Notes: generated from the letters alone by a model not told the origin. A stretch of DNA of 28,025 bases from an uncultured archaeon (GCA_964426185.1 CAYRPF010000019.1:4397-32421), one strand, 5' to 3'. Shown: positions 7,395-15,949, counted from the first letter of the stretch. Numbers and translations: made by a program.

Positions 7395-7470
7395 AACATA
7401 TTTTTCATTTATACCAAATTATTAACCTTTGGAACATATTTTTCATTTATACCAAATTATTAACCTTTGG
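7395..7470. repeat. Perfect 38-bp tandem duplication covering the archaeosortase promoter
   Basis: AACATATTTTTCATTTATACCAAATTATTAACCTTTGG occurs at 7395-7432 and 7433-7470. Each copy contains TTTATA. Confidence 0.92.
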
Positions 7471-7481
7471 AGATAGATTTA

Positions 7482-8219
7482 ATGGGAAAAATAAAATATG
7501 AAGATCATTATTACGATTTCGACTGGTTATCAGTGTTATTATTATTCATTGGTGCTCCTATTATCGCCTTGACTGTGTGGTTTTCTCACGATTGGATTTG
7601 GCTCCACGGTATTACTGCCAAAATAACCGCTTGGTTGCTAAATCTGTTTACAAATACGCAAAGTGTAGTAATGTACGACCCGCGATATTTTCCAACCCCT
7701 TACTATTTTATCGTGGATGATGTACATAATTACGGTTTAGGTTGGATATTTTTCGAATCTTTGTGCACTGGAGTTCATGCAATTGCCATTTTTTCTGCAG
7801 TGATTCTATTAATACCTGCATCTTCTGATCCTACCTTAAAAAAGACAATTTGGCGCAGGAAATTAGCAGCTATCTTAGTAACTACCATTATTTTCTATAT
7901 TGTTAACATACTGCGCATGATTTTGCAGCTTTACCTCTATCAAGATGGAGCTGATTGGGAGGATGTTCATTATCCAATCAGTTCAGCTAGCAGTTTCATT
8001 GCGGTGGCCTGCGTTCTGGTTATGCATAAATATGTGCCTGAATTTATCATGACACTTATTTGGATTGGAGATGAAATTAAAAGTTATCGACGCAAAGGCA
8101 AAGAACTCATAGAAAGTGAAGAAGAGATAATATTGTCGGAAGAAACTGGTGCAGAATCCGGAGCAGAAACAAGAGAAGTCACAAAAGAAGAAAAATCTCA
8201 GAAAATGCATATACCTTAA
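7482..8219 (+). CDS. Archaeosortase/exosortase-family membrane transpeptidase
   Basis: Multi-TM protein with the family's Cys-Arg-His arrangement (ESLCTGVHAI, VNILRMILQ, WEDVHYP) and an acidic tail. ATG 7482 is preferred over TTG 7467, which lies inside the duplication, and TTTATA sits about 31 nt upstream of 7482. Confidence 0.85.
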   Translation: MGKIKYEDHYYDFDWLSVLLLFIGAPIIALTVWFSHDWIWLHGITAKITAWLLNLFTNTQSVVMYDPRYFPTPYYFIVDDVHNYGLGWIFFESLCTGVHAIAIFSAVILLIPASSDPTLKKTIWRRKLAAILVTTIIFYIVNILRMILQLYLYQDGADWEDVHYPISSASSFIAVACVLVMHKYVPEFIMTLIWIGDEIKSYRRKGKELIESEEEIILSEETGAESGAETREVTKEEKSQKMHIP

Positions 8220-8388: not shown

Positions 8389-9915
8389 TTATTTTATGTA
8401 TAACACTAGCAAGTTATGAATTTTATTCCTCAAAGTTTCAAAATTTTCTTTCAATATCTGTTCCAGAGCTGAGTTTTTAGAATAAAATAGCAAGAAGAAC
8501 TTAAATTCATCCACATGAAATTTATACATTATTACATAATCCGTGCTGGAAAATTGATATTTACTGATTTGATCTTTAAGATCTGGATGTATTTGGCTGA
8601 ATTGTTGGGCAATTGTGGTAAATTGAGGGGCAGCAATCTCAAATATCTGCTGAATTGCAATATGTTCTCCAGATATCGAATGTTTTTGTTCAACTGAAGC
8701 TAATACTAAACCATTTTCATTTAATAATAATGCAGTCGAAATATCGTGTTGTTTAATAAAATCATGCAATAAATGCTCCAGTAATGGCCGGTTTGGAGAA
8801 AGCTGACGTAAACCATAACTAAAAGCATTAAGGACAGAATAGATAGAGAATATTGAAGTATGGAAGAATTTATAAGGATGTTTACCGAGTAGATTGGTTA
8901 TTCTAGCTTTGATTTGGGCTAAATTTTGAAGAATTATATCCTTTTGAGTTACATCTTCATCCACTTTGGTTAAAATAAACACTATCGGCAGATGTGGATC
9001 AAATTCATCACATCTACTTATAATAGTCTTCAAAAACTCTTCATTTTCAGAAAGTTTTGGATTTTGTACATCAATAAAATAATACATCAAATCGGTTTCA
9101 TAAATATAAAATTCGGCTTTTTCTAGAAATTCGGTGCGATTTGCTGGAGACCCAGGAATGTCCCATTTCAAAATGGTGGTTCCTAAAAAGTCTAGTGAAT
9201 CTTGAGTAGGACGAGTGGTGGGTACTAATGAAGGTAAGAAACTATAATTTCGTTTAATAGATACTAGAAAACTAGTTTTACCTGTATTTTCCAAACCTGT
9301 GAAGATAATTTTAATACGGCGATGTTTGGTAACGGGTGAAATCGGCTTATGCTGAATGGAATTAAGTTCTGCAAAAAAATCAACAAATAGCGGGATAACT
9401 TGTGAATAATGCGATGATGCGTCCATTTCAGAATTAATTTTTAACTTTTTAACCAATTCGATTAAAGTACGGGTGAATTCTCGGGTAGGACCCTTTAATC
9501 GCGGCAGTGAATCATAAATGAAGCCCCGATATCTTTCTGGTATAAACAAAGTTAAGGAGACCGGAGAATATTGATTGGTAATAGGCGAGAAAAAATAAGT
9601 AAAATAGGTAAATCCAATGATTTTCAAATCTGGATATGGTAATACACCATATAATTCAATATTTTCAAGTTGATCTTGGGCTTTATTATCTAGGGAATAA
9701 TCATTGAGCAGTAATGCAATACTTTTAATGGCAACTTGCATGTAATTACGTTGGGAAAACTCTTTTGTAATAAAACTTGGATTTACTTCAAGAAGATTAA
9801 GATCAGAAGGAATTGGATAACCAAAAATTGCTTCCGGGCCCAATTGACCGAATATTGAAAAAACTGACCCCTTAACAATAAATTCTGGAAAAGTGCTGGA
9901 GGATATTTTCGACAT
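8389..9915 (-). CDS. Longin/uDENN-like domain + Rag/Arf-like small GTPase + roadblock fusion
   Basis: G1 GLENTGKT (aa 207-214), G2 PT, G3 WDIPGS, G4 TKVD, G5 TSI, and a C-terminal roadblock-like STALLLNENGLVLAS. The N-terminal ~190 aa begins VFSIFGQLGPEAIFGYP, a longin-type beta hairpin. Confidence 0.8.
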   Translation of the reverse strand: MSKISSSTFPEFIVKGSVFSIFGQLGPEAIFGYPIPSDLNLLEVNPSFITKEFSQRNYMQVAIKSIALLLNDYSLDNKAQDQLENIELYGVLPYPDLKIIGFTYFTYFFSPITNQYSPVSLTLFIPERYRGFIYDSLPRLKGPTREFTRTLIELVKKLKINSEMDASSHYSQVIPLFVDFFAELNSIQHKPISPVTKHRRIKIIFTGLENTGKTSFLVSIKRNYSFLPSLVPTTRPTQDSLDFLGTTILKWDIPGSPANRTEFLEKAEFYIYETDLMYYFIDVQNPKLSENEEFLKTIISRCDEFDPHLPIVFILTKVDEDVTQKDIILQNLAQIKARITNLLGKHPYKFFHTSIFSIYSVLNAFSYGLRQLSPNRPLLEHLLHDFIKQHDISTALLLNENGLVLASVEQKHSISGEHIAIQQIFEIAAPQFTTIAQQFSQIHPDLKDQISKYQFSSTDYVIMYKFHVDEFKFFLLFYSKNSALEQILKENFETLRNKIHNLLVLYIK

Positions 9916-9999
9916 AGATTTTCTCTAATAATAATTACACGGTTCTGTGGTAAAAGATCTTTTTTTTTTGGAATCTGAGATTACACTCTTTGTTGAAAT

Positions 10000-11010
10000 A
10001 TGAACGAAGAATTAAAATTACAACTAATCAAAAAACAGTTTTTAACAGCGCGAAATATCCAAGAAAAGAGAAAATTGACACCTATTCTCCAAAAAATTCA
10101 AACTTATGGTTATAATTTCGAAATTACTCAAAATTCACTAGGGGAAGATTCTGCGATCATACCAGAAAAGAGATATTCTACTGAAGAACTGCAGACTTTG
10201 CATTTATTAACTACTGATGCATTATTACCTTCATTCGTTAGAAAATCTCCATTTGGTGCAGGATTTTCTTCAATTTACGTTGGAATTGATGATATTATAG
10301 CATGTGGAGGTACACCTTCAGCTTGTAGCATAATTATTTCTTTTCCAACTCAAGAAATCGGGGAACAAATTATTCAAGGAATTATTAAAGGCACTCAAGT
10401 ATTTCAAATCCCTTTAATTCGTGGACACACCACCACTGATGCAAATGATGTATTTCTTGCCTCCACGGTGGTAGGCACTTGTCCTTCTAATGGATATATT
10501 TCTTCAAAAACCGCACATCTCGGTGATTTTATCGCTTTGGTTTGGGATAAAGATGGAAAGCAAGGTAAAGCAAATCATATGTATTGGGATACCATAACCA
10601 ACAAAAAAGGAAAAGAGTTTTATGAAAAACGCCAGTTTTTTCCCCGTTTAGCCCGAAAAGGATATATTCATGCCAGCAAAGATGTGTCCAACGGAGGTAT
10701 TTTAGGAACATTGTATCAAATGATGCAATATTCTAAACATAAAGGAGGTGCAACCATTCAATTAGATGAATTGAACCAATTTCTCAAGAAAATTTCTATG
10801 CCATATTCATTAGAAGATTTTCTTTTTGTTTTTCTCACCTCTGCTTTTCTAATTTGTGGCGATCCAGCGGATATTCCCCATATTTCTAATGAAATTTCCG
10901 CTTGTAACATGGAATTTACCATTGTAGGAAAAGTAATTGAAAATCCTCTTCTACAAATTGAATTTCAAGAAGAATCCACTACTTTAATAAAATTGGGGGC
11001 TGACAATTGA
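10000..11010 (+). CDS. AIR synthase (PurM)-superfamily ATP-dependent enzyme, sll0787 / methanogenesis-marker-2-like
   Basis: Motifs GEDSAII, TTDALLP..VRKSPFGAGF, DDIIACGGTP, RGHT and ASKDVSNGGILGTL. Confidence 0.78.
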   Translation: MNEELKLQLIKKQFLTARNIQEKRKLTPILQKIQTYGYNFEITQNSLGEDSAIIPEKRYSTEELQTLHLLTTDALLPSFVRKSPFGAGFSSIYVGIDDIIACGGTPSACSIIISFPTQEIGEQIIQGIIKGTQVFQIPLIRGHTTTDANDVFLASTVVGTCPSNGYISSKTAHLGDFIALVWDKDGKQGKANHMYWDTITNKKGKEFYEKRQFFPRLARKGYIHASKDVSNGGILGTLYQMMQYSKHKGGATIQLDELNQFLKKISMPYSLEDFLFVFLTSAFLICGDPADIPHISNEISACNMEFTIVGKVIENPLLQIEFQEESTTLIKLGADN

Positions 11011-11522
11011 AAATTTTGACTCAAAATGAAGTGAAAATTGTGAGTGTTTGCGGCGCTCGAGATATTACCTCTGAAATTTTTGAGAGAGCAGAAAAATTAG
11101 GTAATTTGCTTGCAAAAGAAGGATATGTGGTTGCATGTGGCGGCTTAAGTGGAACTATGGAAGCAGTAGCAAAAGGAGCATTATCTGCTGGGGGAACTAC
11201 AGTGGGGATTTTACCAACCTATTCGAAAGAATCGGCAAATCCATACATTACCATAGCCATACCAACAGGACTGGGCGAAAGTAGAAATATCATTCTCGTT
11301 TCAATGGCGGATGTGGTGGTTTCTATCAGCGGTGGTGCAGGAACATTAAGTGAAATTGCATTAGCTTGGAAATTGGGAAAACCCGTGGTCAGTTTGAGCA
11401 CTTCGGGGGGATGGTCAGCAAAACTTGCGGGAACAAGAATAGATTCAACCCGAGCTGCAACTATTTACTCCGCTTCAACATGCGAAGAAGTGATTGATTT
11501 TGTGAATTCTCAATTGAAATAA
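11007..11522 (+). CDS. LOG/SLOG family nucleotide-binding protein (TIGR00725-like)
   Basis: Motifs CGGLSGTMEAVAKGA, TVGILP, GESRNIILV and GGAGTLSEIALAWKLGKPVV. The TTG start overlaps the upstream TGA (TTGA). Confidence 0.88.
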   Translation: MKILTQNEVKIVSVCGARDITSEIFERAEKLGNLLAKEGYVVACGGLSGTMEAVAKGALSAGGTTVGILPTYSKESANPYITIAIPTGLGESRNIILVSMADVVVSISGGAGTLSEIALAWKLGKPVVSLSTSGGWSAKLAGTRIDSTRAATIYSASTCEEVIDFVNSQLK

Positions 11523-11672
11523 AATTTCTTATGCTCGTTTTATCATAAGAGCAAAGAGTTAAATTTACTCCAGAAAGATTTTTAAAGTTGAAAATCAATT
11601 CCTTTTTAATAATTAGTGAGGTAAATTCATCCATTTCTAACAAAAGAGGGTAAGATAAAAAGAGGTATTAAT

Positions 11673-14201
11673 ATGAAAAAGAAAAATGTACTATTGCTAG
11701 TTCCTCTCCTATTATTAATTGGATTGGGGGTAATCAGACTAAGTAGTGCAGACATAGCACTCAAAACACAAGCAACTGTATCTATAGAAGGTACGGATCT
11801 TGATGATTCATATACTCGTTTGGCTTTAATCTCAGCACCAAACACTTTAAGCAATGTATTTGCCGAAGGCTCTCACCCCGGGCAATTTTCCTTCACAAAC
11901 AACTATGGAATCGATAATTTAGGATTCCCAGTGGTGGGAGACGATATCCGTCAATATCCTATATATATAGGAACCACAGGTTATTTTGCAGATTCACCCA
12001 AAATTGATCCATGGGACCAAGTTACTTGGATGAAGGTGGATAATGGAACCGAACTAAGTGCAACAGATCATCCTACATACAACATATCCATGGAATACAG
12101 TCATTTTGGAGATCTAAATCCCGGAGAACTTACATATTTTCGCCTGGATTTAATTAATATGATGTATATTCAAATGAATTTGATTGTCAATCAACCAGGT
12201 TTACACATTTTATATTTTGATTACGATGATATGGATAGTGTTATTTCTTTAATTTCTCCCTCCGAAAATCCTGTAAGCTATTCAGTTCAATCGTTGCCAG
12301 ATGTGTTTCCTGGAGGTGAACCATACCGAAAAATGCTGGTTTTTACTGCAGACGAAAAGGGACCTTATCAATTAATTTTTGTTCCAGATTCACGAGATAT
12401 TGCCTTAGAACTGCAAGAAATCGACACCACATCCAAAATTTCCATTGGATCTTATGTTTCCTACAAATCAGAAGATTATGGGGATATTAATCCAGGAAGT
12501 TTACAATCCGAAGATAACCTTCCTGTTCAATCTTATGCCATAGAGGTGGAAGAAAATCAAATTCTTAGTTATAACTTTGATTTTATTTGGGGTCAATCTA
12601 GTTCAGCCTTTATTAAATTAGCTATCCCCACACCAGACGGCTACGACATTTATAGCGTTCATGCCGACGGAAAAGACCATGCACAATTTATTGCCTTTTC
12701 CGGAACTGCTTATCTCGAAGTAATTTATCGAGATTTTTACTACTGGTCGGGTTCCACTCCCGTTCGAGAATTATGTTATTATAATTTTAATATTGAAACA
12801 ATCACACCCAAAGATTATGTTTTTGGGTCAACTGAACTCTTAGAAATCGGAGGAAATCCACCAGTAAATGTCTGGCGTATTCAAGTTAATGAGAGTATCT
12901 CTGCATTCTTAAATGTATCCGTGATCGCGGGATCACCAGATTATACATTAGATTCAGATCCTTCAAATAGTATCTTTTATGTAGATGTAAATGGTCAAGC
13001 TCAAACTCTTCCAGAGTTATTTGAATTCAATGATGCACATTATTATTATCTTGATCCCGGGGATTATTTTATATTTTTCACACATTCGGCCACAACAGTT
13101 AATAATGAATATATCGAACTTCAGTCGGGATTTGGAAATTACTTTACTACTTTAGAGCATAAAAATCTGACCCATGAAAATCTCATATTTACCATCAATG
13201 AAAAAAGTCGATTCTCATCAGATTATATGGCGAGTGAGGATGGTATTGGTGGCTATGTGACCCCTTTTGTTGCAAATATTACCTATGATGACCCTTTTAT
13301 GCTTGGCGTAAATCTCTCCGTAGTTCGGGCAGATAATTCAGATTTTGAAAATTATCCAGTACGAATGCGGTTCAGATGGGCTTATGCACAACAATCTAAA
13401 TATGATGGTTCTACCTATTCTGTGCAAAATTCGGGTGTGACTTCCAATATTTTACTCGATACTGATGAAGAAGAAACTTTAGGAATCTACCAAAATTTCT
13501 TTGAAGCTTCTTCGTTATTCTTTTCTGGTTCAGGAAGGGGAATTTTTGCAGTTTGGCCTTATGCCCTTGAAATAGATTTGGGAAGTGGATTTGTGAGTTA
13601 TAATAATTCGTTAGATCTTAGAATTGCTACATTCAGCAATAAAGAAATAAATAATATTCATCAAATCTCAGAGATTAGCGAGGTTAATCGACAGATTGGT
13701 CCTGGTTTAGATTATGACACGGTCTATTATACCACGATTTCTTCTATTAATCTAACTGAAACATCCGGTATTTTGCTGGATGTTAATGCTTCCCGGATGT
13801 ATGATTGGTATCAATTTATTCTCAAAACCAATATTTCAAATTCTGGTTCAATTTGGGTGAGTTTAATTTATGACAATATCTGGACTACTCTAAATGGTCC
13901 TACTACAGCAAATGTGGATACAGTTATTTCTGGAAGTAATGAAGGAAATCAGTCTATTGAACTTGGAGTTGCTCCAAAAACGTTTAGAATATTTATTCAA
14001 ATTTTGGATCCAGGAACCGAGATTATTTTGTATAGATTCAGATTATCGCACTATAATATCACCCTGCTAAATTCACCAAGTTATACATCGGAATATAAGG
14101 TCCCTCTTCCAAAATGGGTGCTACCTGCAGGAATCGGAGGCGGTGTGGTTGTGGTAGCAGGAATCGTAGTTGTTGTAATTAAGAAACGAAAAAAATTCTA
14201 A
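11673..14201 (+). CDS. Large secreted cell-surface glycoprotein with a C-terminal membrane anchor
   Basis: Signal peptide MKKKNVLLLVPLLLLIGLG, an acidic beta-rich body with at least 13 N-X-S/T sequons, and C-terminal PLPKW + Gly/Val TM + KKRKKF. SD GAGGT at 11662-11666. Confidence 0.85.
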   Translation: MKKKNVLLLVPLLLLIGLGVIRLSSADIALKTQATVSIEGTDLDDSYTRLALISAPNTLSNVFAEGSHPGQFSFTNNYGIDNLGFPVVGDDIRQYPIYIGTTGYFADSPKIDPWDQVTWMKVDNGTELSATDHPTYNISMEYSHFGDLNPGELTYFRLDLINMMYIQMNLIVNQPGLHILYFDYDDMDSVISLISPSENPVSYSVQSLPDVFPGGEPYRKMLVFTADEKGPYQLIFVPDSRDIALELQEIDTTSKISIGSYVSYKSEDYGDINPGSLQSEDNLPVQSYAIEVEENQILSYNFDFIWGQSSSAFIKLAIPTPDGYDIYSVHADGKDHAQFIAFSGTAYLEVIYRDFYYWSGSTPVRELCYYNFNIETITPKDYVFGSTELLEIGGNPPVNVWRIQVNESISAFLNVSVIAGSPDYTLDSDPSNSIFYVDVNGQAQTLPELFEFNDAHYYYLDPGDYFIFFTHSATTVNNEYIELQSGFGNYFTTLEHKNLTHENLIFTINEKSRFSSDYMASEDGIGGYVTPFVANITYDDPFMLGVNLSVVRADNSDFENYPVRMRFRWAYAQQSKYDGSTYSVQNSGVTSNILLDTDEEETLGIYQNFFEASSLFFSGSGRGIFAVWPYALEIDLGSGFVSYNNSLDLRIATFSNKEINNIHQISEISEVNRQIGPGLDYDTVYYTTISSINLTETSGILLDVNASRMYDWYQFILKTNISNSGSIWVSLIYDNIWTTLNGPTTANVDTVISGSNEGNQSIELGVAPKTFRIFIQILDPGTEIILYRFRLSHYNITLLNSPSYTSEYKVPLPKWVLPAGIGGGVVVVAGIVVVVIKKRKKF

Positions 14202-14230
14202 ATATGAAAGGAAGAAACGAAAAAAATTCA

Positions 14231-14806
14231 CTAAAAGTTAATTGGCTTACAGATAAGCTCTTGCATTTTCAAATCAAAAAATGTGCTAGTGTGAGCTGGC
14301 TGAATTACCCAAGCAGTATCTGCCCCCCGACCAGTGCCTCCTATTGCGATTACTTTATTAGTTCCTATCAAACCAGAATCTGCAGCCATTAAGGTGATCT
14401 CTGCACATACTTTGGTACCTTGTCCAAAAATACGAAGAGTTTCAGCAATCAACTCAGAAATCTGCCAAGTCCCATGTTTTTTTCGAACAGCACGATCTAC
14501 TCCAGCAAATGCATGTGTAGTAGTTAAGACCTTCACACCCCGATTCTCAAAATCTTCTCGTAGATTTTCATCGAGTTCAACTTTTCCGGGTTTGATAAAA
14601 CCTGCTTGATGGGTAACTGCAATTAATAGAACAGTCTTTTGGCTATTATCTTTGATATTCTTCAAAATCTGTAGTGCGGCCTTAATTGTTGTCCCTTTAG
14701 TTGTTGCTATTAAAACTGCGGATATATCACCTTGAAAGGCACGTTCTTTCACTAAATGCAGAACTTCCTCGGTATGTACTCCTGCTTCTTCGAAATAAAT
14801 TGTCAT
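14231..14806 (-). CDS. Pyruvate-kinase C-terminal alpha/beta-domain-like protein (COG1751 / MTH1675-like)
   Basis: IYFEEAG..HTEEVL, IATTKGTT, VTHQAGF, THAFAGVDRA, ETLRIFGQGTKVCAEITLMAADSG and IGGTGRGADTA. The family match begins at the ATG at 14806, not at 14890. Confidence 0.85.
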   Translation of the reverse strand: MTIYFEEAGVHTEEVLHLVKERAFQGDISAVLIATTKGTTIKAALQILKNIKDNSQKTVLLIAVTHQAGFIKPGKVELDENLREDFENRGVKVLTTTHAFAGVDRAVRKKHGTWQISELIAETLRIFGQGTKVCAEITLMAADSGLIGTNKVIAIGGTGRGADTAWVIQPAHTSTFFDLKMQELICKPINF

Positions 14807-14941
14807 ATGTGTTGAAATGCTACTTTTCTCAAAAAGCTGTGTGTTGTGATATTTAATAATTGGAATAATTGGAAGGTAATGAATTCTCAACAGTTAACAT
14901 TTTAATAGGAAAGAAGGTAAATATGGATCATAAATAAAATA

Positions 14942-15949
14942 ATGGGGATTGATTTGACTAAAGATAACTCAAAACCAATTGAAAATGAAATACTTCCACT
15001 AGAGACTATGTTAAAAGAAAAAACCGCTTTGGAAGAACAGCAAGAAACTGAAGATAAAATTTTATTCACCGGATTGGATAATTCCGGGAAAACCAGCATC
15101 ATTTACTCACTTAAAAGAGAGATTTCACAGATTGCGCTTTTAAAACCCACACGACAAGCACAAAGGCAAATCTTCAAATATCTAGGAAAACAAATTTCAG
15201 AATGGGATTTGGGTGGGCAAGAACTATATAGAATTGCTTACCTAAAGGAACCTACGAAATTTTTTGACCATACTTCGGTTTGCATTTATACCATCGACAT
15301 TCAAGATTCGAAAAGATTCGATGAATCGCTATCATATTTCAAAGACGTGCTCACCCAGTTTAAAAATCTGGAAATAAACCCTTTGATTTATGTGTTCTTC
15401 CATAAGGCAGATCCTGAGTATATTAAGCTGAATGATGTCCATATTAAGGGCAAACTGGTGGATTTGAAGGATAGGATTCGTAAGATCGTTAATGAGGAGT
15501 TTAATGTCACCTTCTTTGAAACCACCATTTACGAACTATGGACCATAATGTCTTCATTTTCTCAAATACTGCTGCAGTTGTATCCGCTTTCTCATTTATT
15601 GGATGAAACTATTTCCCAGTTTAGCGAGAAAGTGAATGCAGAGTCTGCAATTGTGCTGGATCAAAATTCACTGCTTATAGCGAAGTACTTTAGCAATGAA
15701 GAAGCACGCCGTATTATTCAAAATTCCACGCCGTATTTTCTCACGTTGCTGGATTCTTTAGATAAGAATTCGGAAGAGACAAAGGAGATGCTGGTGAACC
15801 GCGCAGAAAAGCAATTTTTCATTGCTCGATTTCCTTTGGAAAAAACTGATGGTTGGATATATTTAATAATTATGCGGAACCAATCAGAAATGCCAATATC
15901 TCAAAGTGAAATAGATGGATATATTAAAATTCTCTACAGTATACTCTGA
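14942..15949 (+). CDS. Rag/Gtr-like small GTPase with a C-terminal roadblock domain
   Basis: G1 GLDNSGKT (aa 44-51), G2 KPT, G3 WDLGGQ, Rag-type G4 HKAD, G5 TTIYE, and roadblock-like ESAIVLDQNSLLIAKY. Confidence 0.85.
   Translation: MGIDLTKDNSKPIENEILPLETMLKEKTALEEQQETEDKILFTGLDNSGKTSIIYSLKREISQIALLKPTRQAQRQIFKYLGKQISEWDLGGQELYRIAYLKEPTKFFDHTSVCIYTIDIQDSKRFDESLSYFKDVLTQFKNLEINPLIYVFFHKADPEYIKLNDVHIKGKLVDLKDRIRKIVNEEFNVTFFETTIYELWTIMSSFSQILLQLYPLSHLLDETISQFSEKVNAESAIVLDQNSLLIAKYFSNEEARRIIQNSTPYFLTLLDSLDKNSEETKEMLVNRAEKQFFIARFPLEKTDGWIYLIIMRNQSEMPISQSEIDGYIKILYSIL

Follow-up and report, generated by a model that had tools for sequence, protein, structure and literature searches.

Eukaryotic Rag/Gtr GTPases are obligate heterodimers in which one A/B-type and one C/D-type subunit associate through their roadblock domains, and the G3 motif of RagA is WDCGGQ. 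A 28,025-nucleotide stretch of DNA from an uncultured Loki-type Asgard archaeon (GCA_964426185.1, CAYRPF010000019.1:4397-32421), referred to here as the window, encodes two Rag-like GTPases of 508 and 335 residues (G508 and G335). A preliminary description of this locus took the pair to be an archaeal forerunner of the split between RagA/B (G335) and RagC/D (G508). Is this the relationship between the two proteins, or are they connected in another way?

Organization of the locus

Both open reading frames were found where the preliminary description had placed them, with the sequences that it quoted. G508 is encoded on the minus strand (8389..9915; Pfam Gtr1_RagA) and consists of a longin domain, a Rag/Gtr-like G domain, and a roadblock-type C-terminal domain. 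G335, a RagA-like GTPase with a roadblock-type C-terminal domain (Pfam; PDB 8yl2), is the last conserved gene of a plus-strand unit (14942..15949). The two genes are divergently transcribed, with 5,026 bp between them.

An AT-rich intergenic region of 84 bp (9916..9999), presumably a bidirectional promoter region, separates G508 from the divergent gene for a 336-residue AIR-synthase-related protein of the PurM superfamily (AIRS; 10000..11010, plus strand). This protein is recognized by Pfam AIRS and AIRS_C; its nearest NCBIfam models, methanogenesis marker 2 (145 bits) and the sll0787-family AIR-synthase-like model (139 bits), both scored below their cut-offs. The shared intergenic region suggests that G508 may be co-regulated with the AIRS-SLOG-G335 side, and no alignment of the 84-bp sequence was obtained beyond the genus. 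The AIRS gene overlaps by 4 bp with the gene for a SLOG/LOG-like protein of 171 residues (11007..11522, plus strand; Pfam LDcluster4, 143 bits; TIGR00725, 144 bits against a cut-off of 106.9). Gene maps identify both genes as conserved cluster members and the two that follow as lineage-specific insertions: an 842-residue secreted/anchored protein (11673..14201, plus strand) and a 219-residue open reading frame with a weak PK_C-like match in the Pfam search (14231..14890, minus strand). The 842-residue protein, for which no Pfam or NCBIfam family was found, is common to the window genome and one genome of the same genus (G054) and appears in a single mapped locus (L027). On the other side, convergent with G508, lies a gene for archaeosortase H (7467..8219, plus strand; NF041736, 267.8 bits against a cut-off of 200), which neighbors the cluster in both families that possess it.

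G508 and G335 are Rag-like GTPases with roadblock domains

As the preliminary description had recognized, both proteins belong to the Rag family, matching Pfam Gtr1_RagA (PF04670; gathering cut-off, 22 bits) with 73.6 bits for G508 (residues 202-412) and 89.4 bits for G335; 33 of 33 G508 orthologues also match. Its caution that such GTPases are numerous is borne out by the 26 PF04670 matches in the window genome, about 13-15 of which are G-domain-plus-roadblock proteins. According to the orthologue alignment and a motif script, the G domain of G508 (residues about 196-374; 8794..9330, minus strand) contains G1 GLENTGKT, G3 WDIPGS (Trp251-Ser256), G4 TKVD (Thr316-Asp319), and G5 TSIF. The corresponding G3 and G4 motifs of G335 are WDLGGQ (Trp88-Gln93) and HKAD (His154-Asp157), and all four G3 and G4 motifs read as originally quoted. 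Across 20 G335 orthologues, WDLGGQ and HKxDP are invariant.

In each protein, the roadblock-type domain directly follows the G domain, again as first described. Residues 25-334 of G335 align end to end with the crystal structure PDB 8yl2 (phmmer, E 8e-109). For G508 (residues about 375-508; 8392..8793, minus strand), the orthologue profiles of G508 200-503 and G335 38-335 align over 290 columns, to the C termini, with a probability of 100% (hhalign), and the alignment to Gtr2 reaches Gtr2 residue 271. An Atlas structural alignment, evidence at the level of a lead, matches G508 196-508 to eukaryotic Rag/Gtr model clusters over 292-297 residues with a TM of 0.77-0.81.

Mean column identity is 60% in the G335 group and 48% in the G508 group, suggesting that G335 is the slow-evolving and G508 the faster-evolving member of the pair. 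The asymmetry originally proposed stands insofar as an invariant G335 faces a variable, longin-bearing G508. The proposed loss of the catalytic glutamine from G508 is correct for the window, where Ser256 occupies the position, but this serine is confined to the window genome among G508 orthologues, and in the window's own family (f1), the position (G3+1) is occupied by Q, K, S, A, N, or T. In a second family (f2), G508 keeps GGQ.

G508 carries an N-terminal longin domain

The AF2 model of G508 residues 1-190 (9346..9915, minus strand), built from a 43-row alignment (pLDDT 89, pTM 0.87), adopts a longin fold (beta-beta-alpha-beta-beta-beta-alpha-alpha). Its best structural match is a Loki longin, 8yqg (Z 17.8), and among the longins of GAP complexes, it matches C9orf72-SMCR8 (Z 12.5), Lst4 (11.9), FNIP2/FLCN (11.1 and 10.4), and GATOR1 (10.2). 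Lst4, GATOR1, FLCN, and C9orf72-SMCR8 are also the top Foldseek matches; in a wide search, non-GAP longins came nearly as close (TRAPP, Z 10.9; VAMP7, Z 10.5). A GP motif (Gly26-Pro27) is invariant in all 43 aligned sequences, with beta2 of the model beginning at residue 26. Stand-alone Asgard longins have a GP motif in the loop or at the start of beta2 (PMC12290439, section 2.4). Relatives of about the same architecture, a 470-residue longin-G-roadblock family, match Pfam Folliculin above the cut-off. Judging from the model, the G508 longin is of the GAP-complex (FLCN/SMCR8) type.

The catalytic arginine finger of these complexes resides in the beta4-beta5 loop, as Arg164 of FLCN and Arg147 of SMCR8 (bioRxiv 10.1101/2020.04.16.045708). 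In the window protein, this loop (Pro111-Ile-Thr-Asn114) and its flanks contain neither Arg nor Lys, and the loop has no conserved Arg across the G508 group. The 470-residue paralogues have an invariant A-R-G there. G508 does possess an invariant arginine, Arg130, at the beta5/alpha2 junction rather than in the beta4-beta5 loop. Because no Arg is conserved at the FLCN Arg164/SMCR8 Arg147 site, a canonical GAP role for the G508 longin is doubtful.

The GTPase genes belong to a conserved four-gene cluster

The G508-type orthogroup (about 500-516 residues) is present in 99 of the 121 genomes of the class (E ≤ 1e-60). By a hand tally of the best G508-type and G335-type matches per genome, the two genes share a contig, at a distance of 1.7-11 kb and always head-to-head, in about 71 of these 99; two additional linked pairs (genomes G015 and G115) emerged at a lower threshold. 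Gene maps of 20 loci reveal the core order G508(-) | AIRS(+) SLOG(+) G335(+), with the SLOG gene between AIRS and G335 in 19 of 19 linked loci mapped. The AIRS gene is single copy and adjoins G508 head-to-head in nearly all related genomes. In the minimal form of the cluster, about 1.9 kb separate the two GTPase genes; inserted genes differ by lineage, and all four core genes are retained. A gene for a Zn-ribbon-roadblock protein, which could be the real roadblock partner of G335, sits directly downstream of G335 in family f2 and in one other genome (G038).

The cluster spans two families of the order (f1 and f2) and at least 15 genera in a single orientation. The linkage is therefore not accidental, and the preliminary description was right to attach meaning to it; the lack of linkage in related genomes that it had named as a refutation is not what the genomes show. 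The pair is separated in two genomes (G092 and G044). In the closed genome of G092, AIRS, SLOG, and G335 remain together and an N-terminal remnant of G508 still adjoins AIRS, so this split is recent. At the thresholds used, the two groups occur only within a single order of Lokiarchaeia; families f4 and f6 yielded neither, and the G335 type occurs in only one f5 genome. Beyond the two families with the cluster, the AIRS homologue that comes closest has other neighbors, none of them Rag-like genes, indicating that the cluster arose as a unit. Its conservation in two families implies that G508 and G335 are probably co-functional, and common descent, as opposed to selection, may account for part of the gene order shared by related genomes.

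The PG motif of G508 is derived

The alignment to Schizosaccharomyces pombe Gtr2 (8fw5_E) shows WDFPGQ, HKVD, and AFS..QKLIP..LENLLNIF, the motifs that the preliminary description had given when it proposed that GG in G335 and PG in G508 mirror RagA and RagC. The window copy of G508 does share WD-PG and a ..L.P..P.LE.LL..F stretch with Gtr2, scores higher against S. pombe Gtr2 (36.5 bits) than against Gtr1 (25.7 bits), and retrieves GTR2 as the first eukaryotic cluster in an Atlas feature search. G335, for its part, matches RagA (51 bits) and Gtr1 (45 bits) ahead of RagC/Gtr2 (below 34 bits), with no RagC among its best 60 PDB matches (phmmer), and Vargova et al. placed eukaryotic Rag/Gtr sequences among Asgard relatives.

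The mirroring fails, however, once orthologues are compared. PG in G3 was found only in G508 orthologues of family f1, whereas the f2 orthologues have GGQ in all 16 (SGQ in two) and the nearest paralogues, the 470-residue family, also have GGQ. In a tree of the Loki groups, built without eukaryotic sequences, G508 (support 96) is sister to the 470-residue family (93) and divides into an f2 clade with GGQ (97) and an f1 clade with PG (99). PG is thus derived inside f1. Searched against the PDB with phmmer, an f2 orthologue matched Gtr1 (49 bits) and RagA (48 bits) but neither RagC nor Gtr2 among the best 60, and both an MK-D1-type f1 orthologue and a 470-residue paralogue matched Gtr1 only. Among the G508-type proteins scored, a lean toward Gtr2 is seen in the window copy alone, whose preference for human RagC over RagA (29.9 versus 28.0 bits) amounts to just 2 bits. 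From these scores and the restriction of PG to f1, no specific relatedness to RagC/D-Gtr2 was found across the orthogroup; the preference of the orthologues for Gtr1/RagA, together with the derived PG, argues against a RagC/Gtr2 identity for G508. Nor is the loss of glutamine a RagC-like trait, because RagC and Gtr2 keep it (WDFPGQ). The preference of G335 for RagA carries no information specific to G335, since every Loki paralogue tested prefers the same side. Comparison of these sequences suggests that the RagC/Gtr2 likeness of G508 arose late and is convergent and lineage-specific rather than inherited.

Discussion

We lean toward the view that G508 and G335 are anciently diverged Asgard Rag/Gtr paralogues in a conserved divergent cluster, that the four products most likely act in one pathway, and that PG is a convergence. 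Within it, G335 would be the canonical GTP-hydrolyzing switch, given its invariant G motifs and an orthologue crystallized with GTP as a homotetramer. G508 would be a GTPase that serves as a regulator or scaffold. Its longin domain of the GP type and its roadblock domain would offer a platform for docking small GTPases, of the kind known from Ragulator, TRAPP, MglB, and complexes of the FLCN type, and its catalytic glutamine would have become dispensable in the window's family. A functional partnership of the two is probable, and direct binding of G335 by G508 is a good deal more doubtful.

It is unlikely that the proteins instead form an analogous asymmetric heterodimer through their roadblock domains, with a slow or non-hydrolyzing G508, that arose independently of the eukaryotic split. 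The end-to-end likeness of their G and roadblock domains, the conserved linkage, the relaxed glutamine position in f1, and the Gtr1/Gtr2-like heterodimer predicted for another MK-D1 pair in the available passages of Tran et al. (2024; PMC10933270) would all suit such a complex. But the two genes are never adjacent and never form one operon, the GGQ of f2 shows that the asymmetry is not general, roadblock domains dimerize promiscuously so that architecture alone picks no partner, and the PDB title of a G335 orthologue describes a homotetramer.

We consider it distinctly unlikely that the two are independent switches flanking an old PurM-like/SLOG pair, their order simply inherited. The abundance of Rag-like paralogues in the window genome and the variable intervening genes are compatible with this, but four genes in fixed orientation have outlasted repeated insertions across both families, and the origin of the cluster as a unit also argues against it. 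We give only a small chance to a small-molecule or nutrient-sensing GTPase module in which G508 docks G335 on its longin and roadblock domains and controls its nucleotide state, making the two an asymmetric Rag-like pair whose FLCN/C9orf72-type longin regulator is built in, as the PurM-like and SLOG proteins make or sense the ligand that sets the switch; that these two make or sense a nucleotide-derived ligand is speculative. Functionally, such a module would foreshadow Rag-FLCN/GATOR signaling in a prokaryote, with the RagA/RagC duplication coming later. Despite the Gtr2-leaning window copy and the Asgard placement of eukaryotic Rag/Gtr, a forerunner of the RagA/RagC split itself is highly improbable, given the derived PG and glutamine loss, the Gtr1/RagA preference of the other relatives, and the confinement of both groups to one order at the thresholds used.

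The paralogue pair in its divergent cluster can be set beside several known systems. The closest is LokiRagO (PDB 8yl2), an orthologue of G335 from a different genus (55% identity in the genome search), titled [quoted passage not shown] with GTP, and released on 2025-09-10; our literature search found no paper on it. The sequence printed for 8yl2 corresponds to the G335 orthologue in genome G105 (locus L029), which lies in the same conserved cluster, and its homotetrameric title indicates that G335 can self-associate without G508. The available passages of Tran et al. (2024, Commun Biol; PMC10933270) describe GTPase-roadblock and longin-GTPase-roadblock architectures for MK-D1, thereby covering both G335 and G508, and AF2 predicts a Gtr1/Gtr2-like heterodimer there for another Rag-like operon pair. 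That pair forms an operon, whereas the genes for G335 and G508 are divergently oriented with two or more genes between them, a distance of 7.9 kb in the MK-D1-type genome. Those passages make no mention of a cluster with PurM-like and SLOG genes; the protein class is already known, and the four-gene cluster is apparently undescribed. FLCN-FNIP, GATOR1 NPRL2-NPRL3, and C9orf72-SMCR8 contain the closest eukaryotic longins to that of G508, which has the GP motif, as do the stand-alone Asgard GP-motif longins (PMC12290439), but the G508 longin, with no conserved beta4-beta5 Arg, is fused to a Rag-like GTPase instead of standing alone or being joined to a DENN domain. Eukaryotic Rag/Gtr proteins belong to the same Pfam family and share the G domain with C-terminal roadblock (TM about 0.8 in structural alignment), G3 WD..GQ, G4 HK.D, and the motif in the linker between alpha5 and the CRD. 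Neither of the two Loki groups is the counterpart of a single eukaryotic paralogue, and G508 is set apart by its additional N-terminal longin.

Two Rag-like GTPases with roadblock-type C-terminal domains

The window, which derives from a 3.26 Mb genome that is 92% complete, was described from its sequence as carrying two GTPase genes, each with a C-terminal roadblock domain. The first encodes a 508-residue protein with an N-terminal longin domain (G508; 8389-9915 (-)) and the second a 335-residue RagA-like protein (G335; 14942-15949 (+)); they match Pfam Gtr1_RagA at 73.6 and 89.4 bits, respectively, both far over the gathering score. The G3 and G4 motifs reported for them are present, with WDLGGQ at residues 88-93 and HKAD at 154-157 of G335, and WDIPGS at 251-256 and TKVD at 316-319 of G508. 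Profile–profile comparison aligns residues 200-503 of G508 with residues 38-335 of G335 over 290 columns at a probability of 100%, the solved structure 8yl2 matches G335 across its whole length (E 8e-109), and residues 196-508 of G508 align structurally with eukaryotic Rag/Gtr model clusters over ≈295 residues at a TM score of ≈0.8. These alignments indicate that both proteins comprise a G domain and a roadblock-type C-terminal domain, in agreement with the preliminary description. A single-sequence AlphaFold2 model of the full 508 residues of G508 reached a pLDDT of 35.

The accompanying caution that such GTPases are numerous is also justified, as the genome contains 26 matches to PF04670, of which ≈13 to 15 combine a G domain with a roadblock domain. 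A third Rag-like GTPase-roadblock gene lies on the same contig, 5.7 kb past the end of the window (G000:C19:38138-39106, equivalent to L002:1486-2454 (+); 322 aa, Gtr1_RagA 93.7 bits). Its product has no tryptophan before G3 and branches outside the G335 and G508 groups.

The two GTPase genes belong to a conserved four-gene cluster

We surveyed synteny in 121 genomes of the class, using cut-offs of E≤1e-60 for the G508 type and E≤1e-50 for the G335 type. The two types occur in 99 and 105 of these genomes, respectively, and are essentially restricted to three families of one order (f1, the window's own, f2, and f3). In ≈71 of the 99 genomes, by hand tally from two place tables, both genes sit on one contig, 1.7 to 11 kb apart and always divergently oriented, so the linkage in related genomes on which the preliminary description had staked its proposal was found. 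In most of the unlinked genomes the two genes sit at contig ends, and a lower threshold adds G015 and G115 to the linked set.

True absence of G508 where no 1e-60 match was seen could be rejected for G015, where a contig end splits the gene, for G115, which has a copy of 46% identity, and for G038, where a diverged copy adjoins the AIR-synthase-related gene (AIRS). This last copy (G038:C27, genus g2; L053:7197-8741 (+)) occupies the G508 position head-to-head with AIRS and encodes a 514-residue protein of 27% identity. No GxxxxGK[ST] P-loop is recognizable in it, which makes it a possible pseudo-GTPase.

Maps of the genes at 20 loci define a core of archaeosortase H (+), G508 (-), AIRS (+), a SLOG/LOG-like gene (+), and G335 (+). 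Five loci show the minimal spacing, with AIRS and SLOG alone filling the ≈1.9 kb between the GTPase genes, and the remaining mapped loci carry one to seven unrelated genes at differing insertion points; in the window these are the genes for an 842-residue protein and a 219-residue ORF. AIRS is a single-copy gene that lies head-to-head with G508 at a distance of ≈100 bp nearly everywhere. The divergent intergenic region between them gave no alignment beyond the genus, and a scan for sigma-70 promoters and intrinsic terminators, models that are not applicable to archaea, returned fewer sites than shuffled sequences.

There are two real exceptions to the linkage. The closed genome G092 retains AIRS-SLOG-G335 intact at 1.84 Mb, with a full-length G508 gene ≈960 kb away at 2.80 Mb. 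Adjoining AIRS in this genome is a 96-residue ORF that resembles the N terminus of G508 (L056:6781-7071 (+), G092:C1 at ≈1.842 Mb), and this remnant implies that the pair was split there by a recent rearrangement. In G044, G508-AIRS and G335 are on separate contigs. The nearest AIRS homologue in families f3 to f6, at 30 to 34% identity, adjoins an EF/SelB-like GTPase gene and has no Rag-like gene nearby, from which we infer that the cluster arose within f1 and f2.

Several further features of these loci were recorded. One genome with 6% contamination (G055) contains two complete G508-AIRS-...-G335 clusters, on contigs C63 and C13, which reflect either a genuine duplication or the presence of two strains in the bin. 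In f2, G508 faces a convergent gene for an MtrH-family methyltransferase, and the stop regions of the two share 4 bp (L031:1087-1998 (+) and equivalents); f1 lacks this gene at that position. Several f2 genomes also carry, a few kilobases beyond G335, an extra longin-GTPase-roadblock paralogue of ≈480 to 505 residues that is 37 to 38% identical to f2 G508 (G115:C10:81147-82442, G015:C31:37113-38408, G029:C51:69445-70740, and G096:C15:7945-9252; L041, L043, and L045), and some have tandem G335 duplicates. Together these copies mark the locus as a hotspot of Rag-like genes.

Proteins encoded within and beside the cluster

The AIRS product is an uncharacterized member of the PurM superfamily, and its matches to the nearest models, "methanogenesis marker 2" and the sll0787 family, fall short of the respective cut-offs. 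The 171-residue SLOG product matches the SLOG/LOG-like model TIGR00725 above cut-off; we found no relevant paper in the TIGR00725/LDcluster4 literature. In f4 to f6 (L048-L052), the nearest AIRS-like homologue adjoins genes for an EF-Tu/SelB-like GTPase of ≈465 residues (GHIDHGKT ... VDAPGH) and a 440-residue protein; this setting outside f1 and f2 is conserved too but differs from the Rag-like cluster, and the trio could be related to selenium or translation.

At the other edge of the core, the archaeosortase H gene (7467-8219 (+); NF041736, 268 bits) encodes a 250-residue membrane protein. The 842-residue protein inserted in the window's cluster (11673-14201 (+)), ≈3.5 kb from that gene, has an N-terminal signal-like segment and a C terminus in which LPAG is followed by a hydrophobic stretch and KKRKKF. 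This arrangement resembles an archaeosortase sorting signal, and the two proteins are therefore a possible enzyme–substrate pair.

In f2 and G038, the gene immediately downstream of G335 encodes a protein of 313 to 363 residues that has a Zn-ribbon at the N terminus, joined by a low-complexity linker to a Roadblock/LC7-like domain at the C terminus (L039:6435-7433 (+), L031:6552-7499 (+), L056:2752-3786 (-), and L054:7044-8135 (+)). This protein is a candidate to partner G335 through its roadblock domain or to regulate it in the manner of MglB; an f2 query did not find it in the window's genome.

The G3 contrast does not reproduce the RagA/RagC split

The preliminary description read the GG and PG forms of G3 in G335 and G508 as parallel to the division between RagA and RagC. 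Among 33 aligned G508 orthologues, WDIPG is limited to f1, where it is followed by Q, K, S, A, N, or T, and the serine belongs to the window's copy alone. The 16 f2 orthologues read WDLGGQ, apart from two with WDLSGQ. We also built a tree of 82 G domain-plus-roadblock sequences (IQ-TREE quick search, LG+C20+F+G4 by PMSF, SH-aLRT support). In this tree the G335 sequences form one clade (support 97) and the G508 sequences another (96), whose sister (93) is a family of 470-residue longin-GTPase-roadblock paralogues that carry WDVGGQ; inside G508, the PG sequences of f1 (99) and the GG sequences of f2 (97) form separate clades. Because the sister family has GGQ and the two forms divide within G508, PG is derived.

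Phmmer bit scores against the PDB, a weaker stand-in for a joint phylogeny with eukaryotic Rag proteins, point the same way. An f2 G508 orthologue scores 49.1 bits with Gtr1 and 47.7 with RagA, with RagC/Gtr2 missing among its best 60 matches; for an MK-D1-type f1 orthologue Gtr1 is the sole match at E≤0.01 (25.9 bits), and a 470-aa paralogue matches Gtr1 at 37.7 bits. Among those scored, only the window's own copy leans to Gtr2 (S. pombe Gtr2 36.5 versus Gtr1 25.7 bits; human RagC 29.9 versus RagA 28.0), and this copy is fast evolving, with an end branch of 0.39 versus 0.11 in its nearest relative. Moreover, Gtr2 itself reads WDFPGQ, so loss of the glutamine is not a RagC/Gtr2 trait. The conserved linkage and the asymmetry of the pair thus stand, but the RagA/RagC parallel is not supported; judged by sequence, the likeness appears convergent and partly peculiar to the window's genome. 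Eukaryotic Rag/Gtr sequences are reported to nest among Asgard relatives (Vargova et al.). Our results remove a tempting wrong inference: the PG/GG contrast is no evidence that the RagA/RagC split predates eukaryotes.

G508 carries a GAP-type longin domain

With an alignment of 43 rows, residues 1-190 of G508 gave a confident model (pLDDT 89, pTM 0.87) with longin topology (β1 16-23, β2 26-33, α1 55-70, β3 88-94, β4 99-110, β5 115-126, α2 127-157, and α3 170-189). The best structural match is the Loki longin 8yqg (Z 17.8), followed by C9orf72-SMCR8 (12.5), Lst4 (11.9), FNIP2/FLCN (11.1 and 10.4), and GATOR1 (10.2), with TRAPP (10.9) and VAMP7 (10.5) nearly equal. Foldseek ranks 8yqg first and then Lst4, GATOR1, FLCN, and C9orf72-SMCR8, and Atlas leads concur. 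At the start of β2, G26-P27 is invariant in all 43 sequences; this pair is the GP motif reported for FLCN, NPRL2, SMCR8, C9orf72, and stand-alone Asgard longins (PMC12290439). PDB sequence searches with longin alignment profiles retrieved only 8yqg and not FLCN, NPRL2, or SMCR8, and G508 orthologues have no match to Pfam Folliculin at E≤0.05. The link to FLCN, NPRL2, and SMCR8 comes from the fold, the GP motif, and the Folliculin matches of the 470-aa paralogues.

The β4-β5 loop holds the catalytic arginine in FLCN (R164) and SMCR8 (R147) (bioRxiv 10.1101/2020.04.16.045708). No arginine is conserved in this loop across the G508 alignment, and the window's copy has neither arginine nor lysine there. 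An invariant arginine, R130, occurs instead at the β5/α2 junction, where the 470-aa family has arginine or lysine and 8yqg has arginine. The G508 longin is thus of the GAP-family type but lacks the arginine finger. The 470-aa family (in the window's genome, G000:C24:32477-33883, equivalent to L004:1243-2649 (-); relatives P0034-P0058) combines the GP motif with an invariant A-R-G in the β4-β5 loop, at the FLCN/SMCR8 finger position, and matches Folliculin above cut-off, which makes it the better candidate for a built-in GAP longin.

Discussion

The most useful product of this analysis is the conserved four-gene cluster, in which G508 is tied, in two families, to a canonical RagA-like GTPase and two small-molecule-handling proteins. 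The four genes probably serve a common pathway, with the short divergent intergenic region coordinating their expression. More tentatively, G335 might act as the canonical switch, with G508 regulating or scaffolding it through a longin/roadblock platform on which G335 docks; that the PurM-like and SLOG proteins supply or sense a nucleotide-derived signal is speculative. A strict G335-G508 heterodimer would be an alternative, and a complex prediction with both orthologue alignments (ipSAE 0.21, mark 0.32) counts neither for nor against pairing. Against strict pairing, however, 8yl2, whose sequence matches the G335 orthologue of a closed genome (G105, L029), is titled [quoted passage not shown] and the Zn-ribbon-roadblock gene next to G335 in f2 and G038 also argues against it. 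The four-protein set is concrete and testable, and cultured relatives exist (MK-D1 and L. ossiferum).

Both GTPases belong to a known protein class, and G335 has a crystallized orthologue. Tran et al. 2024 (PMC10933270) counted 74 small GTPases in MK-D1, including 26 that carry a fused roadblock or longin domain, described both the GTPase-roadblock and longin-GTPase-roadblock architectures, and predicted that one pair encoded in an operon forms a Gtr1/Gtr2-like heterodimer. PDB entries 8zla/9m28 are titled "monomeric ... LokiRagM"; we found no paper on 8YL2 or LokiRag (8yl2, 8zla/9m28). As far as could be found, the four-gene cluster is undescribed. Rag-like GTPases and GP-motif longins of Asgard archaea have been described before, in contrast to their partners and inputs, and the question of which GTPases serve as targets of GAP-type longins in these archaea has been posed explicitly (PMC12290439). 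G508, a GAP-type longin covalently fused to a Rag-like GTPase, bears on that question, and in having no arginine finger its longin domain resembles the non-catalytic partners.
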